From: Leptospira sp.
GTDB lineage: Bacteria; Spirochaetota; Leptospiria; Leptospirales; Leptospiraceae
Assembly: GCA_034439575.1 (NCBI GenBank)
Contig: JAWXAQ010000007.1
Coordinates: 96,001 to 160,000, forward strand
Length of the DNA stretch: 64,000 nt
Reading direction: 5' to 3'
Numbering within the stretch: the stretch's first letter is position 1; every line of letters starts with the position of its first letter. The notes below the pieces were generated by a model. It was not told the DNA's origin. It did no database searches and worked only from the letters and a program-made list of their open reading frames with translations. Of this stretch, positions 3,675 through 49,359 are shown piece by piece. Position numbers and translations under genes: made by a program.

Positions 3675-3702
3675 AATATTACTTTACTTTTTTATTTTAT
3701 AT

Positions 3703-4407
3703 TTAGTATAAATTTTTGGAATAACAAATCCAATGGCGATCTGTGATTTGATCTACACTAAGTTTGTCTGCCATTTTTATGACACCTAACATTGACTTTA
3801 CTTCTTCGATCGTATATGAGGCAAGAAGACTATTATAAAAATCTTTTTTCAATATTTCTGATTCATTTTTAGTATATAAATTAACTAAGTTTTTCGCATC
3901 CAATGTGCTTATAGGTCGTATCAAATCACAAATAAATAGGAAACTATCGGCATGTATCGACCTCTGCATAGTGGCCCATAATTCAAAAGGATCTTCTAAA
4001 TGATGTAAGAGAGAATTTGAAAAAAATAAATCATATTTATACTCTGGTATCCATTCTTGGATTTGTGATTGATGCCATTGAATTTGATGTTTATTAAATC
4101 TATTTGTAATATATGATTTATTAATATTTATCATCGGTAAGGAACCATCAACTGCATCCAAATTTGCATTTGGAAACGTTTCAAAAAGTCGAGCCGTCAT
4201 ATCACCGGAACCTGCACCAAGATCGAGAATACGATTTGGATGAAATGAATTCGGTAGATGATTCTTTAGTTGTTGGATGATATAGGAATGTGATTCAGAA
4301 AAATCAGCATTGGCATAACTCTGAATTTGTTCTGAGTCCAACATCAATTCTTGTTCCGGAATTCTTTGGAGATTGAACGATGGATAAGCTAAAGAACGAA
4401 TCTGCAT
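3703..4407 (-). CDS. Class I SAM-dependent methyltransferase
   Basis: Motif I 'ILDLGAGSG', 'AVDGS', 'SNSLLHH'. Confidence 0.85.
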   Translation of the reverse strand: MQIRSLAYPSFNLQRIPEQELMLDSEQIQSYANADFSESHSYIIQQLKNHLPNSFHPNRILDLGAGSGDMTARLFETFPNANLDAVDGSLPMININKSYITNRFNKHQIQWHQSQIQEWIPEYKYDLFFSNSLLHHLEDPFELWATMQRSIHADSFLFICDLIRPISTLDAKNLVNLYTKNESEILKKDFYNSLLASYTIEEVKSMLGVIKMADKLSVDQITDRHWICYSKNLY

Positions 4408-4452
4408 CTTTGGTAATGATTATATATTCTATAGGGATAATCCATCATTTTA

Positions 4453-4480
4453 TTGACATTTACCATTCGGTAGATAGTAT
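4453..4480 (+). promoter_or_regulatory. Candidate sigma70 promoter for the START-domain gene
   Basis: TTGACA (4453-4458), 16-nt spacer, TAGTAT (4475-4480), ~45 nt upstream of ATG 4527. Confidence 0.4.
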
Positions 4481-4526
4481 TTAAGGAATTGATTTAAAAT
4501 TTTATATTCAATTTAGGAAAATCGTT

Positions 4527-5207
4527 ATGATGTCATTTCAAAGTTTCAAATTCTTATTTTCGTTATTCATTGTTAGTTTTCTAACAATTACAAATGTTAT
4601 ACTAGCAGATGAGCCGACATGGAAAGAAGCTAAAAAGAAAAATGGAGTCACCGTTCTCACTCGCGACTTTCCTGGTTCCAAAGTAGAAGAATTTATCGGC
4701 AAAACGGAAGTCGATGCAACTATCTCTCAAGTGTTTGGTCTTTTATCAGATCCGGAATCTTGTAAATATCTCTACTTCAACTGCAAAGAGTTAGAAGTTC
4801 TTTCGAAAGTTAATAGAAAGAGCGTTGTTTATGTTCGAAATGGTGCGCCTTGGCCAGTCTCAGATAGAGATGTAGTGATGGATAGAGTTGTTGATCAAAA
4901 TTCAAAGACAAAAATCGGAACGATGAAACTTAAAAAAAACGAATCAGTCTCTAAGCCTTCTCCCTCCGGTGTGACAAGAATGGATTCCTTTGAAGCGACA
5001 TGGAGGATCATTCCGACAGCACCTGGAAAAATCAAAATCGAATACCAGGCTCACTTTGAACCAGGCGGATCTATCCCTCAATCTGTGATCAATTTAGCAA
5101 TTACCGATACACCTTACAATACTTTGGTGAATCTTAGAAAAGCCATTGAAGAAGGAAAATTCAAAGATAACAAATTGGATTGGGTTGTTGAAATGGAAAG
5201 TGAATGA
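4527..5207 (+). CDS. START-domain lipid-binding protein, exported
   Basis: Signal peptide; 'W...KKNGVTV', 'APWPVSDRDVV', 'EPGGSIPQSVIN' START signatures. Confidence 0.85.
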   Translation: MMSFQSFKFLFSLFIVSFLTITNVILADEPTWKEAKKKNGVTVLTRDFPGSKVEEFIGKTEVDATISQVFGLLSDPESCKYLYFNCKELEVLSKVNRKSVVYVRNGAPWPVSDRDVVMDRVVDQNSKTKIGTMKLKKNESVSKPSPSGVTRMDSFEATWRIIPTAPGKIKIEYQAHFEPGGSIPQSVINLAITDTPYNTLVNLRKAIEEGKFKDNKLDWVVEMESE

Positions 5208-5222
5208 TTTAAATTATTTTTT

Positions 5223-5870
5223 TTATTTTGGATAAAGCATTAAATTGATTTTGTTTTCCAATTCTTCAACTTGGCTTTTTTCATCTTTTGTTAGGTGCTC
5301 CCAAATGCCATGTTCTTTTTTCCATTCGCGCAATTGTTTAGAAGCGGTCAGTAAATCCTTTCTCTGGCCAGTCTTCACATAACATTCACAATTCTCTCTT
5401 ACCAATTTTGAAACATCGTCATAATCAAAATCGCGAAGGGAATTTGTATTGTCCCAAACTTTCTTTGTGTATTCGTACCCACCCTCTGCGGCAAGTCCGA
5501 CTGCCACCTTTGAACCCACTTCCAAAACACAACTAGCTCCTTCACTGGATTTTGATTTGCTTGATGCTTCCAAAGCTAAAATAGGAGCACAAATGAGAAT
5601 TCCGACCACAGCACCACCACCTAAGTAAACAATCGTCTCTGTAACAGCTGTTCCACCAGTGGCGACAACGGAGACCACCTGACCGGATCTCGCTTCAATA
5701 TTTTCCTTTGACTTTTCCAAGAATAAGGATTCGAAAATATCTTCAGAATTTTCTTCACACATTTCCCGATGTTGGATGATATGTTCTGGCTCCAAAGAAC
5801 GAACTACAGGCTTTGGCGCGCACTGAACTATAAAAATGAAAACCAATAAATAAGTAAAAATCTGTCGCAT
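5223..5870 (-). CDS. Hypothetical lipoprotein
   Basis: Hydrophobic N-terminus ending 'FIVQC'; internal Gly-rich hydrophobic stretch; no recognised family. Confidence 0.65.
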   Translation of the reverse strand: MRQIFTYLLVFIFIVQCAPKPVVRSLEPEHIIQHREMCEENSEDIFESLFLEKSKENIEARSGQVVSVVATGGTAVTETIVYLGGGAVVGILICAPILALEASSKSKSSEGASCVLEVGSKVAVGLAAEGGYEYTKKVWDNTNSLRDFDYDDVSKLVRENCECYVKTGQRKDLLTASKQLREWKKEHGIWEHLTKDEKSQVEELENKINLMLYPK

Positions 5871-37211: not shown

Positions 37212-37429
37212 TTTATTATCTCCGATTAAGAATTAGTTTTGAAACCGACGTCTCATTTGAGTTTTTATTTACATGTAAAAATCAAATCTCGAGAGAGAAC
37301 ATTTTACTTAAATAATTCACTATAACTGATGTTCTACTTGAAATTTTTTTTATTAATAAATAATTGAGTAACTTATTAATGGATAAAATCAAATTCTCAT
37401 ACTTGGCAAAAAAAAAGTTATTTTAATAG

Positions 37430-38640
37430 GCAGGAACATAATTAAAAAATTTCATTTCGTATATTTCTGATTATTTTCATTTTTATATTTAACACATGTT
37501 TGCTTAATCCAATGATAAATAATCTTTTCTAGCCCGATAAAAATAAATCAAATTTCAATGTATTTGCCATTTTTTTAATTAGTTCTTTAAATTAATTCTT
37601 CTAATTCAGCCACACCCACTCATCGTTTAACTTTTACTTCATCTTCGTTCGTTTTTATTAAAGGAGGATCTATTGATACTCATACTCCAAATTCGCCAGA
37701 CACTCTAACTGGATGTACATCAAATCCTAGTTTACCAGCAGGGCTAACGATTAATTATTCATCATGTGAAAATAGTCGCACCCGTACAACGATTCAATTT
37801 GCGACAGATTATATAATTAGAGGATTAAACTCATATAGATTTAATTCAACGTCCAACAGAACAGCTAATACATATATCAATTGTTTAACTCAAGTTGAAT
37901 CTTAAGGCTAAGGTCCTTATTCAATTCAAATTCGTTACTATGAAGTTGTGCTGATCACACTTAGAACAAATTTTCGAAGTCCGTATTCGTGTGCTTTTGT
38001 CAATAAGCAATACAAAGTTTCCTGCTTCAGGTTCTTTCACAAATATAATGGATGGCTCGACTCGCATGTCTGTCAAATATTCGGCAACAACTTCAGTTTT
38101 GGAATGGCAATGGTTTTCTTTAGGAAGTATGGTCGGCATCACCGGAACAAATGAAAGTTATCGATTACCCCTTGTGACCACCGAAGACTTATTATTTAAT
38201 TCTGAGTTGCACCTTTCATATTCGAAATATGATAATTCATTAAAATTAATTGGTTTTTAAACACCATCAACCGGGAATTATAGCAAAACATGCATTATTT
38301 CAAATTTAACTGAGATTACATTTTATTATGTGACATCAATGGTAATTAACATTAATATTTCTTATTATCATAAATATCTAATATGTTTTACATCAAACAA
38401 TGCTCATGGTTTTACGGCAGGAGATGTCGGATGTATCTATGGCCTAAACTTAAATGGCTCTGCTCCGATTGCTGAAACAATTTCAGATAAAGATTCAAGA
38501 ATTTTAAGGAGACCATTTAGTATAGTAAAAATAGATAACATACCCGCAGGTACAATTCCAATCACGATTCTGTAACAATACAAAGCATCAACAAACTGCC
38601 ATGTCGATAATGCAGTTATTACAGTCATTCCACTTGAGTG
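37430..38640 (+). pseudogene. Decayed paralog of an Ig-domain surface lipoprotein
   Basis: Broken signal region (..IFNTCLLNPM..). Start-less frame 37591-37905 encodes 'LTFTSSSFVFIKGGSI...TGCTSNPSLPAGLTINYSSCE...TIQFATDYII' (He_PIG-like). Further fragments at 37991-38260 and 38330-38575 are separated by stops or frameshifts. Boundaries approximate. Confidence 0.65.
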
Positions 38641-38719
38641 AAAGTCGGGAAAAGATTAAATATAATTGTACTCAGTCGCGATTTTAATTTCGAAAATTCC
38701 TTAAATTTCTCTGATAATT

Positions 38720-39160
38720 TCAGCTATCCCAAGAATAATAATTGTGATCATTATCCAATTCAAATCCAACTTTAGGATATAACTGATTTCCAATTTTATT
38801 TTTCTTTGCTGTTTCGAGAATCAGTCCACAGGCATCTGTGTCCAAACAAAGTGACTTAGCTTTTTCAATCAATTGGATGGATATTCCTTTTCCTCTATAT
38901 TTTTCTGAAACAAATAAATCATTTAAAAGCCAAAGTCGTCTCATGCGAGTGGAGGAAAAAAGTGGATATAATTGAACAAAACCATTCATAACCGAATCTT
39001 CATTTTCACTGATATAAATCACTGATTCATTTTTTGTGATTCTATCAGTCAAAAAAACTTTCGCCTGTTCTATATCAGAAGGTTTTTCATAAAATACTCG
39101 GTAGGCGTTAAAAAGTAAGGATAAATTTTCTATATCGGATAATTTTACAGCACGAATCAT
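38720..39160 (-). CDS. GNAT-family N-acetyltransferase
   Basis: 'GFVQLYP.FSS', 'LNDLFV...RGKG', 'LET...N....LY..GF'. Confidence 0.92.
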   Translation of the reverse strand: MIRAVKLSDIENLSLLFNAYRVFYEKPSDIEQAKVFLTDRITKNESVIYISENEDSVMNGFVQLYPLFSSTRMRRLWLLNDLFVSEKYRGKGISIQLIEKAKSLCLDTDACGLILETAKKNKIGNQLYPKVGFELDNDHNYYSWDS

Positions 39161-39294
39161 AATTGCAATATTTAATATGCTAATTGATTTGAATATATAT
39201 TTTATTAATACGCGAGGATTTTTATAAATTCAGTTTTTATATGCTATGCGATAATACGCACCCAAAATTAAATTTATACAAAATTTCCCATAAC

Positions 39295-40044
39295 TCATGT
39301 TCGATCAAATAATTTGGATAAGTATTCTTCAAGATTTATTCTAATTGGCATCAGATAAATATTCAGTTCATTGCTTGCACAATAATTAATCACATCCTTA
39401 GCATAACTTACATTCCAGTCTATTGTCGGATTAAAACCTTTTGGAAAGTAGGCCCTATTTCTTGATTCCCAATAGCTTTGAGATTTATCAGAAATCACTG
39501 GACTAATGCCAATATATACTTCCATTCCTCTAAGTTTTTCAGTAAATATATCTATAAGTCTTAAGTCAAAAAATGGTTGAGTTAAAAATCCATCAGCACC
39601 AGCATCCTTCTTCATTTCGATATAATCAAATTCATCTTTAATCCCAACTCGATATTGATCAATTGCAGCATAAACTTTCAAAGAGCTTATTTCTTTTTTG
39701 AGTTTTTTAATCAATTTAATTGAAGTTGTTGGATATACCTTATTTGACATATCTGTTGGCGGATCTCCTTTAATCACAACAACAGATGTTATTTTATTTT
39801 CACGAAGGTAATTTATAATGTGACTGCAATTCTCAATATCAAAATCAATTGCACGTATATGTGGAATAACATTTGGAAAAATATCTTTTATCAAAGTTGC
39901 TGCGACCCAGCTTCTTGTTTCGAATCTTAATAAGTCAGGTATATTTATACCAAAAATTTGATTAAAATTTTTTTTTACATAACTAACTTCAGATAAAAGT
40001 GATTTGACTTCTCTTGGTATGATTTCAAGTAATATCTTGTTCAT
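39295..40044 (-). CDS. Methylenetetrahydrofolate reductase family protein (short form)
   Basis: 'EIIP', 'NIPD', 'IPHIRA', 'VIKGD', 'KKDAGADGFLTQPFFD'. Confidence 0.8.
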   Translation of the reverse strand: MNKILLEIIPREVKSLLSEVSYVKKNFNQIFGINIPDLLRFETRSWVAATLIKDIFPNVIPHIRAIDFDIENCSHIINYLRENKITSVVVIKGDPPTDMSNKVYPTTSIKLIKKLKKEISSLKVYAAIDQYRVGIKDEFDYIEMKKDAGADGFLTQPFFDLRLIDIFTEKLRGMEVYIGISPVISDKSQSYWESRNRAYFPKGFNPTIDWNVSYAKDVINYCASNELNIYLMPIRINLEEYLSKLFDRT

Positions 40045-40134
40045 AATAAATACATAACTTCTTTGTTTAATTTATAATGGCAACTTAAAGTTTAATTACC
40101 GATGTTCTAAATCACAAACCAAATCCTCATCGAC

Positions 40135-40201
40135 GATTCTTACCTTACGGCAAACTTAGTTTCCATCGGAAGCTTAGCCATGGATAATGTAGCGCTGCCT
40201 T
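40135..40201 (-). repeat. Degenerate inverted copy of the intergenic repeat
   Basis: Colinear blocks gcaaa, gtttccatcgg, catggat, gtag, cctt match the reverse complement of 6065-6132. Confidence 0.6.
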
Positions 40202-40446
40202 TTTAGAAGATAGCTAGATCAGGAAATTAAGAATAAATTTATCATTTAACAAATCCGAGGTGCCCATGTATTCAAAAATAATTGCATAAAAATTTGTAAG
40301 AACTCAAAATTATAATTCGTCGCGATTATTAGCATATTGCTTAAATTTTCATAACTATTGAAAGACTTTTAAGTAACTTAAATTTAAAAAATTTATTGAA
40401 TAAAGGATCCATTGATGAATACTTCTGCTGATGAAAATAATAATTT

Positions 40447-42576
40447 ATGATTAAAACTAATTTTGATATTCTTTGGATTATTTTTTCAAGTGGGCTAGTT
40501 TTCTTTATGCAAGCAGGCTTTCTCTGTTTAGAGTCTGGCCTAACAAGAACCAAAAATTCCATCAATGTAGCCATCAAAAATATCACGGACTTCGGGATTG
40601 CCACTGCCGTTTTTTATACACTTGGTTTTGGTATCATGTATGGCGAAAGTTTTTATGGTTTCTTTGGAACAAATTCATTTTTACCTAACTTCGGAATTGT
40701 TTCGCCTGAAATTCCTGTTTTTTTTATTTTTCAATTAATGTTTTGCGGAACAGCGGCAACTATAGTATCAGGAGCTGTCGCCGAACGGATGAAATTCGGT
40801 GCTTATATTATAGTAACGATTATTATATCCGCTTTGATTTATCCACTATTTGGCCACTGGGCTTGGGGGAAAAATTTATCATCTTGGAATATAGCCACGG
40901 GTTGGCTCGCAAAACTTGGATTTATTGATTTTGCAGGATCTACTGTTGTGCATAGTTTAGGTGGATGGGTTGGCCTAGTCGCGATGTCAATTATTGGGCC
41001 AAGGGAAGGAAAGTATTCGGCCTCAGGTGAAATTAGAAATATAACAGGACACAGTTTACCTATTGCCATGCTTGGAACATTGATTCTATGGTTTGGTTGG
41101 ATAGGATTTAATGGTGGTAGCACTTTAGCGTTCTCAGGAAAAGTTCCGGGAATTATCGCAAATACTATGTTGTCTGCTGCAGGTGGATTGGGCGCTGCAT
41201 TAATATACGGATGGAAACGATTAGGTTATGCAGAAGCGACCCTACCATTGAACGGGGCATTGGCTGGTCTTGTTTCAATCACGGCATCTTGTCATGCTGT
41301 AACTTCAGCGCAAGCTTTACTAATTGGAATCGTTGGTGGGATTCTAATGTTTGAGACTCGTCCCCTATTAGATAAATTCAAGATGGATGATGCAGTCGGT
41401 GCCATTCCCGTTCATTTAACAGGTGGAATATGGGGTACTCTCGCCGTCGGTCTTTTTGGAAACTTAACAACTTTAGGAACAGGACTTTCACGTGTTGATC
41501 AAATTTTAATACAACTTACAGGAATCGTATGTTGTAGTTTAAATGCATTGTTCATTAGTTATTTGTTATTGAAATTGATTAATCATTACTATCCGCTTCG
41601 CGTATCATCGCAAGACGAATATGAAGGGCTCAATTTTACTGAACATAGAGCAACGACAGAACTTACTGATTTATTTCTGGAAATGGAATACCAAAAAAGA
41701 ACTGGGGATCTCAGTAAAGATATTTCTGTCGAACCATTTACCGAAGTTGGCCAAATTGCTGAAAGATACAATTTGGTTTTAAAAAAAATAAGAATCGGTA
41801 TCGAAGAAAGGGATCAGCTAACAAAGGATTTACAAAAAAATTTGAGTCTAATTCAGTCTGATCTTTTAACAGCCAAAAAGATTCAAAAGTCAATCATTGC
41901 AGAAAATGATAAAAAAATTCAAGGGTTAAATATTAATGCTCGCTATCTTCCGCTAACAGAAGTAGGTGGAGATTTTTATGATATTTCTGAAGTGAAACCT
42001 GGTGTAACAAGAATATTCCTTGCGGATACGACAGGTCACGGAGTCCAGGCCGCCCTAATGACAATGGCGATCAAAACATTATATGAATCATTAAAGAGGA
42101 AATCATTCTCCGTCGCAGAAATACTCTATTATTTAAATAATGAATTTTTAGATTTTTTTGGAACTTTAAACCAATTCTTAACCTGTATCATTATAGAAAT
42201 AGATATAAATAAAAACCAAATTTTATATTCATCTGCCGGCCATATACCTCAATATTTAGTTGCCGATGGAAAGTTGATTCGATTAGAAAAAACTGGTCGC
42301 TTGTTAGGTGTCAAAAAGAATGCAGAACATGAAAGTAAAATTCTGCCCTTCGCTGGAAATTCTAAGTTATTTTTATTCACAGATGGAATTTCAGAATCTT
42401 GGAATCATGAAAAAATCGAATATGGAGACGAAAGAATTGAAATGATTCTTTCAGATTCTAACAATGCACACGTTTCCGAAACAATAAATCGTTTGTTAGA
42501 TGATCAAAAATTATTTTTAGCAGGCGAAAAGGTAGAAGATGATATTACGATCATCGGCATAGAAAAAGAAAATTAG
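40447..42576 (+). CDS. amt: Ammonium transporter (Amt) fused to a SpoIIE/PP2C-type phosphatase
   Basis: Amt: 'MQAGF..LESG', 'FQLMF', 'HWAW', 'DFAGSTVVH', 'WFGWIGFNGGS', 'DDAVGAIPVH'. PP2C: 'VGGDFYD', 'ADTTGHG', 'SAGH', 'FTDG', 'DDIT'. Confidence 0.92.
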   Translation: MIKTNFDILWIIFSSGLVFFMQAGFLCLESGLTRTKNSINVAIKNITDFGIATAVFYTLGFGIMYGESFYGFFGTNSFLPNFGIVSPEIPVFFIFQLMFCGTAATIVSGAVAERMKFGAYIIVTIIISALIYPLFGHWAWGKNLSSWNIATGWLAKLGFIDFAGSTVVHSLGGWVGLVAMSIIGPREGKYSASGEIRNITGHSLPIAMLGTLILWFGWIGFNGGSTLAFSGKVPGIIANTMLSAAGGLGAALIYGWKRLGYAEATLPLNGALAGLVSITASCHAVTSAQALLIGIVGGILMFETRPLLDKFKMDDAVGAIPVHLTGGIWGTLAVGLFGNLTTLGTGLSRVDQILIQLTGIVCCSLNALFISYLLLKLINHYYPLRVSSQDEYEGLNFTEHRATTELTDLFLEMEYQKRTGDLSKDISVEPFTEVGQIAERYNLVLKKIRIGIEERDQLTKDLQKNLSLIQSDLLTAKKIQKSIIAENDKKIQGLNINARYLPLTEVGGDFYDISEVKPGVTRIFLADTTGHGVQAALMTMAIKTLYESLKRKSFSVAEILYYLNNEFLDFFGTLNQFLTCIIIEIDINKNQILYSSAGHIPQYLVADGKLIRLEKTGRLLGVKKNAEHESKILPFAGNSKLFLFTDGISESWNHEKIEYGDERIEMILSDSNNAHVSETINRLLDDQKLFLAGEKVEDDITIIGIEKEN

Positions 42577-42701
42577 TATATTATGATTCAATAGATTTTA
42601 ATTCAAAAAAGCATTCATGCGTATTTCAATTTATGATCTGGAAACAATTCTTAGTCGAAACTTAAGAAGAATATTAATTTTGGGAGAGTATGATAGAATT
42701 T

Positions 42702-42731
42702 GTTCGGATCACATACATTCGCGATCCGAAC
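42702..42731. terminator. Hairpin between convergent genes (possible terminator)
   Basis: GTTCGGATC-12 nt-GATCCGAAC perfect 9-bp stem; no strong U tract. Confidence 0.5.
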
Positions 42732-42771
42732 TGAGAAATTACTTACGCCTAATCGTATTTAAGCGCTAATT

Positions 42772-43056
42772 TTATTTTTTTCCATTTTTCTCTTCTTTTT
42801 TGGATTCTCGTTTCTCTTCTTTTTTGACTTTTTTGAAGTTCTTTATTTCATCCGCAGTAATAGAGCCATCTGCGTCTTTATCAAATTCAGTAAATCGAGC
42901 ATCGTGAAAAGTTTGCCATTCTTCTTTAGTAATTTTTTTATCTGAATTCGCATCCATTTCTTTAAAATGTCCCATACCATTCCCTTTATCATGAGCGCTC
43001 AGTGCGACTGAAAAAGTAAATAGGGAAATTAGTGAATAATAGTGTAGTTTCATCAT
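42772..43056 (-). CDS. Exported EF-hand protein
   Basis: Signal peptide; 'DANSDKKITKEE' and 'DKDADGSITADE' EF-hand loops. Confidence 0.85.
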   Translation of the reverse strand: MMKLHYYSLISLFTFSVALSAHDKGNGMGHFKEMDANSDKKITKEEWQTFHDARFTEFDKDADGSITADEIKNFKKVKKEEKRESKKEEKNGKK

Positions 43057-43210
43057 GTCCTCTTTGACCTAAAATTAGATGCCAATCCTGAGGAAAGTCA
43101 AGACCAACGAGAACAATTACAAGAAATTATGACGCATTCCAAATTATACAGCAATGTAATAAGTCGTTTAATATTGACAGAGGGACTGATTTTATAAGCA
43201 TTTAAGAATC

Positions 43211-45052
43211 ATGCAAAATGAATACCTACTCGGCATTTCTGCCTATTATCATGACAGTGCTGCGTGTTTGCTAAAGAACGGAGAAATCGTAGCTGCGGCT
43301 CAAGAAGAAAGATTTACTCGGAAAAAACACGATTCCAGATTTCCAATCAATGCTATCCAGTATTGCCTTAAAGAAGCAAATATCAGTTCCGATGATTTAA
43401 CGAATGTTATATTTTACGACAAACCATTAGTTAAATTTGAAAGATTATTAGAAACTTATCTTTCTTACGCACCCCGTGGATTGTTCTCGTTTTTTGCTGC
43501 GATGCCAATTTGGCTGAAAGAAAAACTTTTTCTAAAAAGTACCCTACAAAAAGAATTTAAAAGTTTATCACCCACGAAAAAATCTCCTAAACTTTTATTC
43601 ACCGAACACCACCAAGCACATGCAGCCTCAACTTTCTTTGTTAGCCCTTATGAAAAAGCCATTGTTCTTTGTCTTGATGGGGTTGGTGAATGGGCAACTA
43701 CTTCCGCTTGGGTCGGAGATGGCAACAAACTAACACCTCTTTGGGAGATCGACTTTCCACATTCGATAGGTTTATTATATTCAGCATTTACTTATTATAC
43801 AGGGTTTAAAGTAAATTCAGGTGAGTACAAAGTAATGGGACTCGCACCGTATGGCGAACCAAAGTATGTTGATCTCATTTATAAACATTTGTTAGACCTA
43901 AAAGAAGATGGTACATTTCGTTTAAATATGGAATACTTCAATTATGCAGCTGGCCTAACAATGACAAATGATAAATTTCATAAATTATTTGGTGGGCCAC
44001 CAAGAAAAAGTGAATCTACTCTCACACAAAAGGAAATGGATTTAGCTAGATCAGTCCAAGAAGTCACCGAAGAAGTTATGTTACGACTTGCAAGAGCGGC
44101 AAAAAAAGAAACAGGTATCAATCATATTTGTTTGTCAGGTGGTGTCGCATTAAATTGTGTAGCAAATGGAAAAATACTAAAATCAGGAATTTTTGATGAA
44201 GTATACATTCAACCTGCTGCGGGCGATGCAGGTGGTGCACTAGGTGCTGCACTTTCTGCACACTACGAATATAAAAAACATCCCAGAAAAGTGAATCCGC
44301 TTGATTCTATGAAAGGTTCTTATTTGGGACCATCATATGAAAATCCTGATATTAAAATTTCTTTAGATAAGCTTGGTGCCAAATATACAGAGCTTTCCAA
44401 CGATGCGCTTGATGACCGTTTGGCGAAAGTATTAGAAGAAGGAAATGTAATCGGTTATTTCCAAGGACGAATGGAATTTGGACCACGAGCCCTTGGTGGA
44501 AGGTCTATTATTGGCGATCCAAGAAACCAAAAAATGCAATCGGTGATGAACCTAAAAATCAAATATAGAGAAAGTTTTCGTCCATTTGCTCCCGCAGTAC
44601 TTGCAGAAAAAGTTTCTGAATATTTTGATATCAAAGCAAAAAGCCCTTATATGCTAATAGTCGCAGATGTATTGCCTAAACATCGAATTGAAATGACAAC
44701 CGAACAACAAAAGTTATTCGGTATAGAAAAATTGAATGTTCCAAGGTCTTCATTACCCGCCATAACGCATGTAGATTATTCAGCAAGAATTCAAACGGTC
44801 CATCCTGAAACGAATCCAAGATTTCACTCACTCTTAACAAAATTCTATAAACTGACAAATTGTCCAGTTTTAGTAAATACCTCTTTCAATGTTAGAGGAG
44901 AGCCAATCGTATCTACACCCGAAGATGCTTACAGATGTTTTATGAGAACTGAAATGGATTATCTCGTCATTGAAAATTTTCTATTAGATAAAAAAGATCA
45001 GCCCATAATTGAAAAAGATGATTCTTGGAAACAAGAATTCGAGTTGGATTAA
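43211..45052 (+). CDS. O-carbamoyltransferase (NodU/CmcH/TobZ family; SxtI-like)
   Basis: 'YHDSAA', 'EERFTRKKH', 'EHH.AHA', 'DGVGE', 'GGVALNC.ANG', 'EFGPRALG', 'FRPFAP', 'NTSFN'. Confidence 0.95.
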   Translation: MQNEYLLGISAYYHDSAACLLKNGEIVAAAQEERFTRKKHDSRFPINAIQYCLKEANISSDDLTNVIFYDKPLVKFERLLETYLSYAPRGLFSFFAAMPIWLKEKLFLKSTLQKEFKSLSPTKKSPKLLFTEHHQAHAASTFFVSPYEKAIVLCLDGVGEWATTSAWVGDGNKLTPLWEIDFPHSIGLLYSAFTYYTGFKVNSGEYKVMGLAPYGEPKYVDLIYKHLLDLKEDGTFRLNMEYFNYAAGLTMTNDKFHKLFGGPPRKSESTLTQKEMDLARSVQEVTEEVMLRLARAAKKETGINHICLSGGVALNCVANGKILKSGIFDEVYIQPAAGDAGGALGAALSAHYEYKKHPRKVNPLDSMKGSYLGPSYENPDIKISLDKLGAKYTELSNDALDDRLAKVLEEGNVIGYFQGRMEFGPRALGGRSIIGDPRNQKMQSVMNLKIKYRESFRPFAPAVLAEKVSEYFDIKAKSPYMLIVADVLPKHRIEMTTEQQKLFGIEKLNVPRSSLPAITHVDYSARIQTVHPETNPRFHSLLTKFYKLTNCPVLVNTSFNVRGEPIVSTPEDAYRCFMRTEMDYLVIENFLLDKKDQPIIEKDDSWKQEFELD

Positions 45053-45053
45053 A

Positions 45054-45464
45054 ATGAAAGATACCACCAAACCTACACCCAGCCTTGACGATTTAAGAAA
45101 ATTTGCATTCATAGTCGGGGGTGTCCTTGCTGTGATTTTCGGCGGACTCATTCCCTATTTGAATCGAGGATCTTGGAATCCTAATTTGGTCTATATTGGT
45201 TCGGCCATCATATTCCTTGGAGTCACCGTTCCAAAAATATTGCTATATCCTTACAAACTTTGGATGTTGATCGGTGAAGTTCTCGGTTGGATCAATACAC
45301 GTATCATCTTATCTGTTATCTTTTTCTTGTTGTTTACACCAATTGGAATTATAAAAAAGATCTTCGGTAATGACTCTATGCGAAGAAAGTTGGATTCAAA
45401 GACTGAAACTTACCGCATAGTTTGTATAGAACGAACATCAGATCATATGGAAAGGCCATTTTAG
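45054..45464 (+). CDS. SxtJ-family membrane protein
   Basis: 'LRKF', 'WM.IG..LGWINTRIIL..IFF..FTPIG', 'D.MRRK', terminal 'ERPF'. Start moved to ATG 45054. Confidence 0.85.
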   Translation: MKDTTKPTPSLDDLRKFAFIVGGVLAVIFGGLIPYLNRGSWNPNLVYIGSAIIFLGVTVPKILLYPYKLWMLIGEVLGWINTRIILSVIFFLLFTPIGIIKKIFGNDSMRRKLDSKTETYRIVCIERTSDHMERPF

Positions 45465-45473
45465 AGGAACAAA

Positions 45474-45626
45474 ATGATAGAATTACTTAAGGACTTATGG
45501 GATTTTTTAAGAATACGGAAAAAATTTTGGTTAGCACCCATTATAATCATCTTACTTTTATTAGGTGCTCTGCTTGTATTAACACAAGGTTCAGCAATCG
45601 CTCCTTTTATATATACTTTATTCTAA
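45474..45626 (+). CDS. SxtK / DUF5989-family small membrane protein (50 aa)
   Basis: Not in the ORF track. MIELLKDLWDFLRIRKKFWLAPIIIILLLLGALLVLTQGSAIAPFIYTLF, with GAGGA RBS. Confidence 0.9.
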   Translation: MIELLKDLWDFLRIRKKFWLAPIIIILLLLGALLVLTQGSAIAPFIYTLF

Positions 45627-45627
45627 G

Positions 45628-46785
45628 TTAATTTGAATTAAAAAGGGGAGATTTTTGTAAATGTTGTACGAAAATCTTCCCAAATACTTTGTGACCTTCC
45701 CCATTCCAATGAGCATCATATGGAAAGTATAAATTTTCCGGATTCACATTCCATAAAAGCCTAGATGTCATCAAACAATCAATAAACTTCATTTCACAAA
45801 AGGACTGTATATTTTTAAGATGCGGATTTTTTTGTTCATACGCTTTTATTTCATGGGATTTGATATCACCAAGAATTCCACCTTTTGCAAAAAATTCTTT
45901 TGCTGGGATATATATAATTCCCATTTTAATATTATTTTCAGTTAAAAGATCAAAAATTAAATCAAGATAATATATCTCTTTTTCCAAACGATCCTTCCAA
46001 ATCTGTGTTTCAGCAGATGCGTAAAATTCAAATTGTCCATTGTACTTAGTTTGAATCGATTCCGAGAGCGGTGTTAGTCGACCAAATTTCTGAAGTGATT
46101 CTTGGTGATTCAACAATTTCACATCCGGCACACGATTTTCTTTGTAATATAAAATGGGTTCAGTTCCACCTTTTGCAAATTTTAAGGACCGCTTTATAAG
46201 TCGGATAGTTGTGCTTTCCTTAACAAAATTGTAAAGTGGAGTGCTAAATATTTTAGCTAACAATGGTTTTTTGGGAATTCTAATTCCGTCCTTCTCTTCC
46301 AAAAATATTTCAAATTTATCAATATCATCCAAATCATTATCAAACAATTGAATATAAACAACCTCTGGTCTAAATTTTTTAACGTATTCTTTTAAGTGAA
46401 TGTACATTAAAGATGGAGAAGAGCCATGAACTCCCATATTTCTAATTTTTTTGTCTTTAGGTAATTCTTTATTGGCAATTTCTGTAAAAACTTCGTTCTC
46501 TTCAACTCCCCAACCTTCTGAGAATGAATCACCAACTAACAAAACAGGATAATTATCGGATGTTAATTTTTGTCGTCCGCCAAAATTATTAGTTTCTACT
46601 AAAACTTTATATTCTTCGGAAACAACATACCCAGACTTATTTGGATACATAGAAAATAATAAATCATCATCAAATGATTTTACAAATACAACTTCTGGAT
46701 CAAATAATCTAAGTAAAAATTCTGCAATGCTAATATAAAACAAAATCAAAACAAAATACAATACTAATTTTTTAAATATTTTCAT
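45628..46785 (-). CDS. Membrane-anchored SGNH/GDSL hydrolase-like protein
   Basis: N-terminal TM + 'AEFLLR'; block I 'VGDSFSEG', 'GVHG', 'DND', block V 'DAHWN..GH'. Confidence 0.85.
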   Translation of the reverse strand: MKIFKKLVLYFVLILFYISIAEFLLRLFDPEVVFVKSFDDDLLFSMYPNKSGYVVSEEYKVLVETNNFGGRQKLTSDNYPVLLVGDSFSEGWGVEENEVFTEIANKELPKDKKIRNMGVHGSSPSLMYIHLKEYVKKFRPEVVYIQLFDNDLDDIDKFEIFLEEKDGIRIPKKPLLAKIFSTPLYNFVKESTTIRLIKRSLKFAKGGTEPILYYKENRVPDVKLLNHQESLQKFGRLTPLSESIQTKYNGQFEFYASAETQIWKDRLEKEIYYLDLIFDLLTENNIKMGIIYIPAKEFFAKGGILGDIKSHEIKAYEQKNPHLKNIQSFCEMKFIDCLMTSRLLWNVNPENLYFPYDAHWNGEGHKVFGKIFVQHLQKSPLFNSN

Positions 46786-46843
46786 TCTAATACCAAACCT
46801 GATAATAAATTTTTACTTATTAATAGCAAATGTTATGTGATAT

Positions 46844-47779
46844 TTACGATTCTTGAAAATCAGTAAGTAATTCAGAACTATTATCATTTAACAAAATGGT
46901 GATAATAGCTTTTGAACCATCGTCTTCGTAAGTCAAATCATCGAAGGATAATCGACGAGCCATAAAAATGCCTCGGCCATGTGTTTTAAATGCATTTTTG
47001 GTCATGGCTTGTAATGATAAAAACTTTCTCCAATCAAATCCTTTGCCCTGATCTTTTATAATAATTTTAATCTTATCTTCAAATTTCTCAAACAAAATTT
47101 GTACAAACTTTTGTGCATATTCAGGTTGATTCAATCGATTGAAAATTTCTTCCATCAATTTATCATTATCATGCAATTCCGTTTTTTCTTGATAGGTGAT
47201 GCCTAAATTACCATGTTCAATTGAATTATTCAGAATTTCCATGATCCCAGTTAACACTCGTTCTGGATTTGGACATGCATTCGCTAGAATTGGTGCCAAT
47301 TCATGAGACTCACGAATTGACTTAATTCTAAATTCACCCTTAACAAGGTGACGCAGTGCGCCCATTCCTTTATGCAGATCTTCTTTAGCTTTCTGTAATT
47401 TTATATAATGTTCAACTGCTGTCTGTACGATTGTGACTAACAATGCTCTTGAATAAGGTTTCGTTAAATAATAAAATGCACCTGCATCTAAACCATCAGT
47501 CATATCTGTAACTCCGCTCATAGCAGTCTGAAATATTACTGGGATATCTTTCCATTTCTCAGAATGTTTTATTTTTCTAAGTAATTCTATGCCATCCATC
47601 TTCGGCATCAATCGATCGAGTATAATTGCAAAAAAAGGAAATTCATTTCGATTTAATATGGCAAGTGCTTCTTCTCCATCTCTAGCTTTGACAATATTAA
47701 ATCCTTTTTCGCTTAACGACTCTTCAATGATCATTAAATTGATTGATTCGTCATCGACTGCCAAAAGATTCATAGTCAT
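46844..47779 (-). CDS. Response regulator fused to a HATPase (anti-sigma/RsbW-like kinase) domain
   Basis: REC 'AVDD', 'ILDRLMPKMDG', 'KP'; C-terminal 'EILNNSIEHGN', 'IKDQGKGFDW', 'HGRGI'. Confidence 0.85.
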   Translation of the reverse strand: MTMNLLAVDDESINLMIIEESLSEKGFNIVKARDGEEALAILNRNEFPFFAIILDRLMPKMDGIELLRKIKHSEKWKDIPVIFQTAMSGVTDMTDGLDAGAFYYLTKPYSRALLVTIVQTAVEHYIKLQKAKEDLHKGMGALRHLVKGEFRIKSIRESHELAPILANACPNPERVLTGIMEILNNSIEHGNLGITYQEKTELHDNDKLMEEIFNRLNQPEYAQKFVQILFEKFEDKIKIIIKDQGKGFDWRKFLSLQAMTKNAFKTHGRGIFMARRLSFDDLTYEDDGSKAIITILLNDNSSELLTDFQES

Positions 47780-49359
47780 ACAAATTCTCCTTGTTTGACG
47801 GGTAGAAGTAAAGTAAAAATAGCCCCGCCATCTTCATGATTATCTGCATATAGCAATCCATGATGGTCATTTACAATTTCCCTAGATATTGACAATCCTA
47901 GTCCTGTGCCCTTAGTTCCAGCCTTTACTTGTTTGGATTGAATGAATTTTTCAAAAATTTTATCCAAGTCTTCAGGGAGAATGCCAGGTCCAAAATCCCT
48001 AATTTGAATCCCTATTCCTTTTACATACTTTTTCGTCTTCAAAGGTATAAACTCTCTTTCAGTTTTTGTAATTTCAATCACAGTATTGTCGGGAATAAAT
48101 TTCAAAGCATTCGATAGTATGTTTCGTATAACTTGCTGAATACGCTCAAAATCAAACTCAGCCTGCCAACGTTCATTCGAATTTTCAATTTTAATTTGAA
48201 TATTCTTTTTTTCTAATATAAGACTAAGTTCACCAGTCACATATTGTAATGTTTCTTTCAAACAATTTGGTTCAAATAAATACCTCATTTTGCCAGATTC
48301 CAATTTTGCTAAATCTAAAAGGTTTTCTAACAAATTTAACAATCGTTTTCCGGATGTATCTATGATTTGAAAGTATTCTTGTAATTTTTGTGGATTAGCT
48401 AATGTCGCTTTTGAAAACCCAAGTTCAGCATAACTTAAAATAGCATGAATTGGAGTTTTTAATTCATGCGAAATATTTGCAAGAAATAGTGATTTCATTT
48501 GAGATGCTTCTTCCGCGACTTCTTTAGCAATTTTTAAATCTAAGGTTTGTTGCTCTACTAATTCCTCTAAGTGATTTCGATAATGGAAAATTTCTTCTTC
48601 TTGTTGTCTACGAATCGTAATATCTCGTATGATACCAAAAAACATCTTTCCAGTATTTGTTTTAAATTCTCCGACAGATATATCGCAAGGAAAAGAATCA
48701 CCATTTTTCCTTAATCCTTGTGACTCAAATTGCGATTGGGCCAAATTTTCCCAAGCATTCGCATTACCAGTATTAACTAATTTTGGTAGAATGCCATAAA
48801 TTTCTCTTGAAAGTATTTCTTCCTGTTTATATCCAAACGAAATTTCTGCAGCCTTATTGAAAAATTGTATGATACCTGATTCATTGAAGATCACTATAGA
48901 ATCTGCAGCATTCTGAGCCATTGATAAAAATCTAGATTCACTCTCTAGAAATGCCGCTTCTAAACGTTTACGTTCCGTTATATCACGATGTGTTGAAACA
49001 ATATATCCTTCATATATTACAACGAATCTTACTTCTGCAAATCGGACTTCATCAGTAGAATTATATTCATATTCTTTCCAGAAGACTTGATTCTTTTTAA
49101 TACTTAAATATCCAATTGCTTCTTCGGCAAGTTTACTTAAATAAGGAGGCAATCCTTCCCATAATTGTTTACCTACGATTTCTTCATTGGATTTTCCCAT
49201 CGTCATATAACGAGAAGGTTTAAAATCTACTATCAAACCATCGAAAGTAAATTTTAGCCAAAAATCTGGATTTGAGCGTAAAAGATTTTCAAGTTCGCGT
49301 AATACTTCTTCGGAAGTAAAAGCCCTTGGATTTTGCCAAATTCTTTTTAATTGATTCAT
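47776..49359 (-). CDS. PAS-domain sensor histidine kinase
   Basis: PAS domains; 'FLANISHELKTP'; 'NILSNALKF', 'DFGPGI', 'GTGLGL'. Overlaps the regulator start. Confidence 0.92.
   Translation of the reverse strand: MNQLKRIWQNPRAFTSEEVLRELENLLRSNPDFWLKFTFDGLIVDFKPSRYMTMGKSNEEIVGKQLWEGLPPYLSKLAEEAIGYLSIKKNQVFWKEYEYNSTDEVRFAEVRFVVIYEGYIVSTHRDITERKRLEAAFLESESRFLSMAQNAADSIVIFNESGIIQFFNKAAEISFGYKQEEILSREIYGILPKLVNTGNANAWENLAQSQFESQGLRKNGDSFPCDISVGEFKTNTGKMFFGIIRDITIRRQQEEEIFHYRNHLEELVEQQTLDLKIAKEVAEEASQMKSLFLANISHELKTPIHAILSYAELGFSKATLANPQKLQEYFQIIDTSGKRLLNLLENLLDLAKLESGKMRYLFEPNCLKETLQYVTGELSLILEKKNIQIKIENSNERWQAEFDFERIQQVIRNILSNALKFIPDNTVIEITKTEREFIPLKTKKYVKGIGIQIRDFGPGILPEDLDKIFEKFIQSKQVKAGTKGTGLGLSISREIVNDHHGLLYADNHEDGGAIFTLLLPVKQGEFV

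Follow-up and report, generated by a model that had tools for sequence, protein, structure and literature searches.

Sensor-type ammonium transporter (Amt) proteins are a recent receptor class, established by work on Ks-Amt5 of 'Candidatus Kuenenia stuttgartiensis' (PMC5764959, 2018) and Sd-Amt1 of Shewanella denitrificans (PMC11152129, 2024), the only two members studied. Both proteins bind ammonium and do not transport it; the output is a histidine kinase in Ks-Amt5 and a GGDEF diguanylate cyclase in Sd-Amt1, and neither paper speaks of a phosphatase output. We describe a gene of Leptospira sp. that joins an Amt module, through a HAMP-like linker, to a phosphatase domain of the PP2C/PPM family, SpoIIE/RsbU type. 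It lies in a stretch of 64,000 nucleotides (GenBank assembly GCA_034439575.1, contig JAWXAQ010000007.1, positions 96,001 to 160,000 of the forward strand), hereafter the window, in whose own numbering positions are given. With a probability of roughly 0.6 we read the protein as a sensor-Amt ammonium receptor whose output is a Ser/Thr phosphatase, which would act on a STAS-type protein encoded elsewhere in the genome.

The receptor class is defined by a lateral two-ion site, N1/N2, formed in Sd-Amt1 by E29, N45, D48, T104 and S107, with Q22 and F25 near (PMC11152129). Asn-269 constricts the cytoplasmic exit in this class, while in assimilatory Amts a Tyr and a Ser line a wide exit (PMC11152129). 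A phosphatase output, if true, would tie ammonium directly to the partner switching that sets sigma-factor activity and related switches. The partner-switch set of Leptospiraceae is unusually large and its inputs are nearly all obscure, and a member with a readable input offers a way into the network.

The design itself has been reported for Amt-GI5 of the SAR11 genomospecies gMED, a protein of 716 amino acids with an 11-helix Amt, a 'HAMP-like domain' and a phosphatase domain, IPR001932 (PMC11796062, Microbiome 2025); SAR11_0049/SAR11_0050 of HTCC1062 are named alongside it. The gene for Amt-GI5 was found in 6 of 64 single-cell genomes and belongs to a genomic island. Its authors proposed an ammonium-sensor role, stated that this role could not be assessed, and found the fusion apparently exclusive to SAR11 within their marine dataset (PMC11796062). 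Amt-GI5 and the Leptospira protein share reported design and size, a likeness by description between members of different phyla, and both are patchy, the latter being found in 3 of 40 other genomes of its own genus and lying, in the window, in a region whose arrangement none of these 40 shares. Those SAR11 genomes, in which no other phosphatase domain was found (PMC11796062), differ in this respect from the genome of the window, with its 48 SpoIIE matches.

A reading made earlier from the sequence only had described this route as one not known to be experimentally characterised. Our literature searches found no experimental study of it, but the design and the sensor idea are already known, having been published in 2025 for SAR11. 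The same searches returned no work on Amt-phosphatase fusions in Leptospiraceae. What is new is how widely the fusion is spread in Leptospiraceae, and that a GAF-PP2C-TPR gene found family-wide lies directly upstream of a gene for a sensor-type Amt.

The fusion gene

The gene and its parts are laid out as follows.

40447..42576 (stop codon included), + strand: whole gene, Amt-HAMP-like-PP2C fusion of 709 amino acids
40471..41655, + strand: Amt module (ammonium transporter fold), residues 9-403, from Pfam and alignment to Sd-Amt1 (8qj3) and Ks-Amt5 (6eu6)
41635..41796, + strand: HAMP-like module, residues 397-450, from alignment to the Sd-Amt1 HAMP region, an AF2 model and predicted-dimer contacts
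41797..41895, + strand: coiled-coil signalling linker (the second helix continued), residues 451-483, from the AF2 helix 433-483 and dimer self-contacts with 3-4 spacing
41896..42573, + strand: PP2C/PPM phosphatase domain, SpoIIE/RsbU type, residues 484-709, with Pfam SpoIIE at 518-706 (nucleotides 41998-42564)
40045..40446, no strand: upstream intergenic region of 402 nucleotides, shared with the divergent gene 39295..40044 (- strand)

The open reading frame (ORF) starts with ATG and runs through 709 codons in one frame with no internal stop. Pfam places PF00909 (Ammonium_transp) at residues 9-403 (E 8e-111, far over the curated cut-off) and PF07228 (SpoIIE) at residues 518-706 (E 1.9e-36, 126.2 bits against a cut-off of 25), and the protein scores 379.5 bits on the NCBIfam model TIGR00836 'amt', whose cut-off is 343.3. 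Both Pfam domains occur together in 92 of the 120 best protein clusters listed. Of 113 other family genomes, 47 have a collinear match over the full length (query residue 1 to at least 706), and in one more the match is truncated where its contig stops. Complete collinear proteins of 708-720 amino acids, at 62-69% identity, are present in 20 public contigs of Leptospira/Leptospiraceae, and a 21st (L012) ends at the contig edge.

An alignment was made of 31 Amt-PP2C proteins, with identity down to 41%, and the junction region is the most conserved stretch of the linker. The sequence-only reading had named a sequencing artefact as one of the things that would overturn it. That two separate genes were joined by assembly or by a frameshift has a negligible chance, and we rule it out, given the single open frame, the collinear fusions in the family genomes and public contigs, and the conserved junction. 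The domain search and the distribution thus agree with what was first proposed, both domains being confirmed by Pfam and orthologs extending across Leptospiraceae; as read from its sequence, the gene is a real, intact and conserved fusion of a sensor-type Amt with a PP2C domain.

The Amt module

The closest solved relative is Sd-Amt1 (8qj3/8qj4/8qpf, E 2.5e-121), followed by Ks-Amt5 (6eu6, E 1.9e-89); structures of E. coli AmtB rank behind both, at about 1e-32. The Sd-Amt1 alignment spans residues 9-456 in both proteins with almost identical numbering, and includes the HAMP region beyond the membrane domain. Alignment to solved Amts shows that the Trp/Ser site (W140/S225), the Phe gate (F99/F221) and the twin His (H169/H323) are kept, as the earlier reading had said, and these residues are invariant in the 31 fusions. 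The C-terminal Amt motif quoted in that reading was also located, as LRVSSQDEYEGLNFTEH at residues 384-400.

The residues of the sensor site are Q22, F25, E29, N45, D48, T105 and S108, with N269 as the exit plug. The first seven are invariant across the 31 Amt-PP2C proteins, and N269 is kept in at least 90% of them. The amtB gene that precedes glnK in the same genome has the transporter signature, with Tyr aligned to residue 29 and Ser to residue 269. The genome has three P-II matches, two on contig C33 and one on contig C5, and none on the window's contig C7, which bears out the statement that no glnK or glnB adjoins the fusion. With the Amt fold and pore, the N1/N2 ligands, Asn-269 without the Tyr/Ser signature and a C-terminal transducer all present, and with sensor-type residues in place of the exit signature and no P-II match on contig C7, we assign the module to the receptor (sensor) type and not to the assimilatory AmtB-GlnK type.

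Pore residues, N1/N2 ligands and the Asn-269 plug are common to the fusion and Sd-Amt1 (PDB 8qj3, 8qj4, 8qpf; PMC11152129), and both have a HAMP-like two-helix module whose second helix begins at residue 433. Their outputs differ, Sd-Amt1 having a GGDEF diguanylate cyclase where the fusion has a PP2C phosphatase, and so does the kind of evidence: ammonium binding, absence of transport and ammonium-dependent output have been measured for Sd-Amt1 (PMC11152129), whereas for the fusion such properties are read from its sequence. Ks-Amt5 (6eu6) is likewise a sensor Amt with an N1/N2 site and a C-terminal transducer, but its output is a histidine kinase and it is described as lacking a HAMP-type transducer module (PMC5764959), which the fusion has in HAMP-like form. 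With the AmtB-GlnK uptake system the fusion shares the Amt fold and pore residues; unlike that system it has no glnK partner, carries sensor residues where the Tyr and Ser would be, and extends by 306 additional cytoplasmic residues.

The HAMP-like linker

Residues 381-709 were modelled with AF2 (21-sequence alignment, mean pLDDT 81.6). In the model, residues 397-419 are helical, residues 420-432 form a loop, and a second helix of 51 residues (433-483) leads into the PP2C fold. The connector, residues 420-432, is GDLSKDISVEPFT, and a conserved motif, P430-F431-T432..G435....Y441-N442, follows from its end into the second helix. A HAMP module consists of two amphipathic helices and a connecting stretch of about 13 residues, some 50 residues altogether, behind the last membrane helix, and the model conforms to this shape.

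A profile built from 60 linkers matched Sd-Amt1 best (E 2.6e-4) and next, weakly, the 'histidine kinase,Gcn4p' chimera 9trk (E 0.006), which was matched at two stretches of its chain with the pattern 'GDxSxRxPV...N'. We take the 9trk chain, on weak grounds, to be a HAMP array and this pattern to be a HAMP connector and second-helix motif. The linker is homologous to the stretch of Sd-Amt1 that is named HAMP, residues 404-450 there (PMC11152129). We therefore call it HAMP-like: it is HAMP-shaped and homologous to the Sd-Amt1 module, and it lies outside the Pfam HAMP model. The HAMP/coiled-coil-like linker of the sequence-only reading holds as a HAMP-like one. The string that it quoted, DLSKDISVEPFTEVGQIAERYN, is present at residues 421-442, and the two-helix shape and a coiled coil are predicted; the Pfam HAMP model is not matched.

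The PP2C domain and its predicted dimer

The PP2C motifs are GGDFYD (507), DTTGHG (527), FTDG (644) and EDDIT (697). In an alignment to 5mqh, with the chain offset applied, D527, D646 and D698 fall on SpoIIE D628, D746 and D795, which are metal-binding residues (PMC8080068). The claim that all metal-binding Asp are present is thereby upheld. The three Asp are invariant in the 31 fusions, as are D509, D699 and neighbouring glycines. The switch helices of the domain are at 533-550 and 556-574.

A Foldseek search of the model gave as nearest folds P. aeruginosa RssB (3eq2/3f79, E about 1e-17), SiaA (6k4e, E 6.4e-16, TM 0.80 on the target), the RsbU domain of Rv1364c (3ke6), SpoIIE (5ucg) and RsbX (3w40), with E values from 1e-17 to 1e-12 over the five. 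RssB proteins are also the nearest solved relatives by sequence, and structures of E. coli RssB are among the fold matches, in low ranks. These two points would suit a catalytically dead PP2C domain that serves as a binding adaptor like E. coli RssB. We consider such an adaptor very improbable, because the three Asp aligned with SpoIIE metal ligands and the flanking Gly are invariant in all 31 fusions.

Residues 381-709 were predicted to form a homodimer with a score of 0.48, the best of three controls scoring 0.00. The mark for such scores was reached by 20 of 30 proteins solved as same-chain pairs and by 1 of 23 solved as single chains, counts that apply only approximately to the custom alignment used here. 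The three runs agreed in at least 82% of contacts, with partner pLDDT of at least 80. The predicted interface has three parts. In the first, the first helix packs against the second helix across chains in a four-helix bundle (model residues 33, 36 and 37 with 60 and 64). The second is a heptad-spaced coiled coil of self-contacts at model residues 57, 61, 64, 68, 72, 75, 79, 82, 86 and 89, that is, I437, Y441, V444, I448, I452, R455, T459, L462, L466 and I469. The third is formed by the first two PP2C helices.

Among the core positions of the linker two are polar, R455 (Lys in 20 of the 31 fusions) and T459. A dimer through the linker and the first PP2C helices has been proposed for RsbU, RssB and HAMP-PPM proteins, and proteins that combine a PPM domain with a receiver, GAF, PAS or HAMP input are predicted to have the same architecture, in many cases with a polar linker core (PMC12143880). 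Polar residues at the core, such as R455 and T459, are what the linker-stability model of that work leads one to expect. The fusion thus has in common with RsbU, P. aeruginosa RssB and HAMP-PPM proteins the PP2C fold, metal ligands and switch helices (PMC12143880, PMC8080068) and a predicted dimer through a crossing helical linker with polar core residues and the first PP2C helices. It differs in its input, an integral-membrane trimeric Amt where the RsbU/RssB type has a soluble dimeric domain or a partner protein. SiaA of P. aeruginosa (6k4e) has a membrane-anchored HAMP-PP2C design like that of the fusion; unlike the SiaA system, no siaB, siaC or siaD adjoins the fusion. The protein offers a clean test case for a proposed general rule, by which a dimeric coiled-coil linker switches PPM phosphatases; in this protein the linker would be driven by a trimeric membrane sensor.

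Proposed function and alternatives

In the mechanism that we propose, periplasmic NH4+ would pass the Trp/Ser site, the Phe gate and the twin His and would then be diverted to the N1/N2 pocket (E29, N45, D48, T105, S108), not leaving through the exit narrowed by N269. Occupancy of the pocket would shift the Amt domain at its C-terminal end; of the trimer's three HAMP modules, two would pair into a four-helix bundle, and this bundle would set the register or the stability of the coiled-coil linker, with polar R455 and T459 at its core. The linker would position both switch helices of the PP2C dimer and so control metal binding and activity, and ammonium might switch the phosphatase in either direction, on or off. 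The active enzyme would dephosphorylate a STAS-type protein, resembling an anti-sigma antagonist, whose gene lies in another part of the genome, and would thereby feed the organism's very large partner-switching network (48 SpoIIE, 27 STAS and 21 RsbW-like HATPase_c_2 matches in the genome; 22 STAS_2 matches fall largely at the same places as STAS). Uptake for growth would be left to the two amt-glnK operons.

Several results weigh against this reading, some touching transport, some the modules and their assembly, and some the target. As to transport, the complete sensor-site signature is found also in the genome's standalone Amt, and plant AMT1 transporters fall in the same N1/N2 residue cluster, a dual role having been suggested (PMC11152129); the signature alone therefore argues for ammonium binding, not for loss of transport. 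Together with canonical pore residues that are all intact, these points speak for a true transceptor or regulated transporter, in which the Amt would import ammonium usefully and the PP2C domain would report the flux or regulate transport by its own or another Amt. We judge this unlikely, since the two characterised fused members bind and do not translocate (PMC11152129, PMC5764959), the Asn-269 constriction of the exit is conserved, uptake is already provided for by two amt-glnK operons, and the module's closest relatives have outputs that serve signalling only (MCP, CheA-like). Of the transceptor that had been proposed, the part that senses ammonium is supported by the sequence; the part that transports it is not favoured, in view of the characterised members and the two operons.

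As to the modules, the Pfam HAMP model PF00672 gave no match to residues 394-484 or 394-709 at E values up to 10. Scores on NCBIfam equivalog models were far under their cut-offs (RssB 68 against 700, SiaA 39.8 against 700, SpoIIE 32 against 490.8), and the fusion is thus not an ortholog of any characterised phosphatase. The dimer prediction, which is no measure of binding in cells, may have passed through likeness to solved dimers of related phosphatases (RssB), and a dimeric output below a trimeric Amt requires a break of symmetry that is itself only modelled for Sd-Amt1. Literature searches returned no binding, transport or phosphatase measurement for any Amt-PP2C protein.

As to the target, no STAS match lies inside the window, and the nearest is about 27 kb downstream of the fusion gene. 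Among the window ORFs scanned (58 of the 59 non-nested ORFs of at least 100 amino acids, and one of 94) the sole partner-switch-like protein is a Response_reg+HATPase_c_2 protein (46844..47779, - strand), 4.3 kb away. Neighbours of the orthologs vary from locus to locus, and neither STAS nor RsbW was found among 48 neighbour ORFs, out of 114 listed, from 16 of 19 orthologous loci; an upstream HisKA_2 kinase at one locus (L014) has a sub-threshold HATPase_c_2 match. Nor does STAS or RsbW lie beside the Amt-PP2C copy at the cyanobacterial locus from Leptolyngbya (L083). There being no partner gene in any context examined, the target cannot be read from gene context.

This lack of a linked STAS or RsbW gene, and the place of the SiaA PP2C domain among the best sequence and fold matches, would fit a phosphatase whose target is something other than STAS: a SiaC-type cyclase controller, a Ser/Thr-kinase substrate or a nitrogen-regulatory protein. 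We hold such a target to be decidedly improbable. The genome has a single SiaC-family gene (PF09345), and it directly adjoins a different SpoIIE gene, on contig C15, so that a SiaC-type target is not favoured. P. aeruginosa RssB, Rv1364c, SpoIIE and RsbX, all among the nearest folds, act on STAS-fold or STAS-like phosphoproteins in partner switching. Variants exist in which an RsbW-like HATPase_c_2 domain is fused behind the PP2C domain (P0060, P0069), and many of the 27 STAS matches in the genome have no obvious phosphatase. A metagenome scan with P0069 gave one locus, encoding HAMP-PAS-SpoIIE-HATPase_c_2 with no Amt and no annotated neighbour.

A STAS target is expected from the subfamily and fold relatives of the PP2C domain and from the HATPase_c_2-fused variants, which are the whole basis for it. 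The sequence-only reading had gone as far as ammonium-gated dephosphorylation of a STAS protein; the sensor with a phosphatase output finds support in the sequence, while the STAS part comes from the PP2C subfamily, with no STAS or RsbW near the gene.

The same input with other outputs

In the genome collection, 59 other loci match only from residue 1 to about 449-523, at 44-61% identity. Their hosts include spirochaetes, planctomycetes, cyanobacteria, Marinomonas and others. All 59 relatives keep the pore residues, and the eight-residue sensor signature and the linker motif P-F-T..G....Y-N are each complete in 58. We scanned 36 of these Amt-matching ORFs against Pfam, counting a second domain at E 1e-6, with the following result.

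Amt with HisKA+HATPase kinase: 8 ORFs
Amt with adenylate/guanylate cyclase: 5 ORFs
Amt with Hpt+HATPase (CheA-like): 4 ORFs
Amt with hybrid kinase and receiver: 3 ORFs
Amt with MCP signalling domain: 2 ORFs
Amt with GGDEF-EAL: 2 ORFs
Amt with SpoIIE: 1 ORF
Amt with no second Pfam domain at this threshold, tails of about 130-200 residues: 11 ORFs

Because varied outputs stand behind the same Amt and linker, these two together are, by domain content, a widespread and reusable input cassette, of which the phosphatase is one interchangeable output.

Sensor Amts fused to MCP (L036, L075 and, by size, L040) or to CheA-like Hpt+HATPase domains (L031, L039, L046, L055) come from planctomycete, Rhodothermaceae and spirochaete contigs and are possible ammonium chemoreceptors. 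The 11 sensor Amts with tails only are 526-646 amino acids long and keep the HAMP-like motif (L042, L043, L044, L047, L051, L057, L060, L064, L077, L081, L084); their tails, without a Pfam domain, may be short outputs or unrecognised ones.

Distribution in Leptospiraceae

Full-length matches to the fusion are spread over the genera of the family as follows.

Genus g13: 19 of 24 genomes
Genus g12: 12 of 22 genomes
Genus g14: 6 of 8 genomes
Genus g4: 4 of 5 genomes
Genus g3: 1 of 2 genomes, with one more cut by a contig end
Genus g10: 1 of 1 genome
Genus g11: 1 of 1 genome
The window's own genus, other genomes: 3 of 40

The three copies in the own genus are 66-67% identical to the window's protein and those of other genera 65-69%, so that copies are no closer within the genus; for comparison, another phosphatase of the same genomes is 89-92% identical. 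A DNA search with the arrangement MTHFR-like / Amt-PP2C / EF-hand / carbamoyltransferase-SxtJ-like-SGNH (37300-46800) found it contiguous in none of the 40 other own-genus genomes. Two of the three holders (G067, G070) have the fusion and the carbamoyltransferase cluster on separate contigs, and in the third (G074) the cluster is not among the matches listed. The cluster is present in about 9 of the 40 genomes, at 70-73% DNA identity, and the region 37300-46800 looks like a variable region. The low identity within the genus and the unshared arrangement suggest a gene that moves or is easily lost within the family.

In 19 other own-genus genomes a protein of about 700 amino acids matches only to residue 488-519. 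It is probably the Amt-cyclase form seen in Leptospira meyeri. A search of the window's genome did not find this form, and in the own genus the PP2C form and the form of about 700 amino acids are never listed together in one genome. In two other genera both occur together with a third form of about 760-800 amino acids.

Other Amt genes of the genome

Of the four Amt genes in the genome, three are associated with a SpoIIE-family phosphatase, either fused or encoded directly upstream. Besides the fusion, a GAF-SpoIIE-TPR gene (L085:2628-4457) ends 10 nucleotides before the standalone Amt (L085:4467-5894; genome G000, contig C27, about 409127-412393), which has the full sensor-site signature and no glnK. 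A further SpoIIE gene (L086:2079-3470) lies about 95 nucleotides upstream of amtB-glnK (3565-4860 and 4872-5216; contig C33); its protein has no other Pfam domain and a hydrophobic N-terminal half. The two amt-glnK operons of the genome are ordinary uptake systems.

Of the 114 family genomes, 99 have the GAF-SpoIIE-TPR protein. All 30 own-genus loci, counting that of the window's genome, have an Amt gene downstream of it in the same orientation, as do all 15 loci sampled in 11 other genera; these counts come from related genomes and are not independent. The pair is kept at 50-68% protein identity, which suggests that the coupling of Amt and PP2C is old and general in Leptospiraceae.

A broader idea, which we advance tentatively and would sooner doubt than accept, is that in Leptospiraceae external ammonium is wired to PP2C/STAS/RsbW partner switching, beyond P-II alone, in parallel through the fused receptor, which is patchy and apparently mobile, and the family-wide operon of a soluble GAF-PP2C-TPR phosphatase and an Amt. 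If so, an Amt could control a PP2C phosphatase in two ways, in cis as a fused domain and in trans as its membrane partner, comparable to the control of GlnK by AmtB, and a nitrogen signal independent of P-II would reach sigma factors or other partner-switch outputs.

Neighbouring genes

The fusion gene stands alone. Upstream is the divergent MTHFR-like gene (39295..40044, - strand) and downstream a convergent EF-hand gene (42772..43056). The sigma-54 motif TGGCAC-N4-6-TTGC has no match in the window. Sigma-70-like sites around the gene number 13 (shuffle mean 14.8) and terminator-like sites 1 (shuffle mean 1.9), neither being above the shuffles, and the gene is assigned no promoter. No RNA data set was listed as carrying the sampled sequence words, and one metagenomic run contained 0.05 of them.

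Further downstream are a carbamoyltransferase with N- and C-terminal domains (43211-45052), a small SxtJ-family membrane protein (45009-45464) and an SGNH/AlgX-like protein (45628-46785), which make up a putative small carbamoylation or acylation cluster. The Response_reg+HATPase_c_2 gene (46844-47779, - strand) lies directly downstream of a gene for a PAS histidine kinase (47776-49359, - strand), with an overlap of 4 nucleotides; judged by its domains, the pair looks like a two-component input into a partner-switch kinase.

In Leptospira ainazelensis (L022) an alanine dehydrogenase gene (4443-5558, - strand) is divergent from the Amt-PP2C gene and just upstream of it, and a LuxR-type response regulator gene (3772-4440, + strand) lies beside the dehydrogenase. 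Alanine dehydrogenase is an ammonium-releasing enzyme. At another locus (L023) there is an ORF like this alanine dehydrogenase in size and place.

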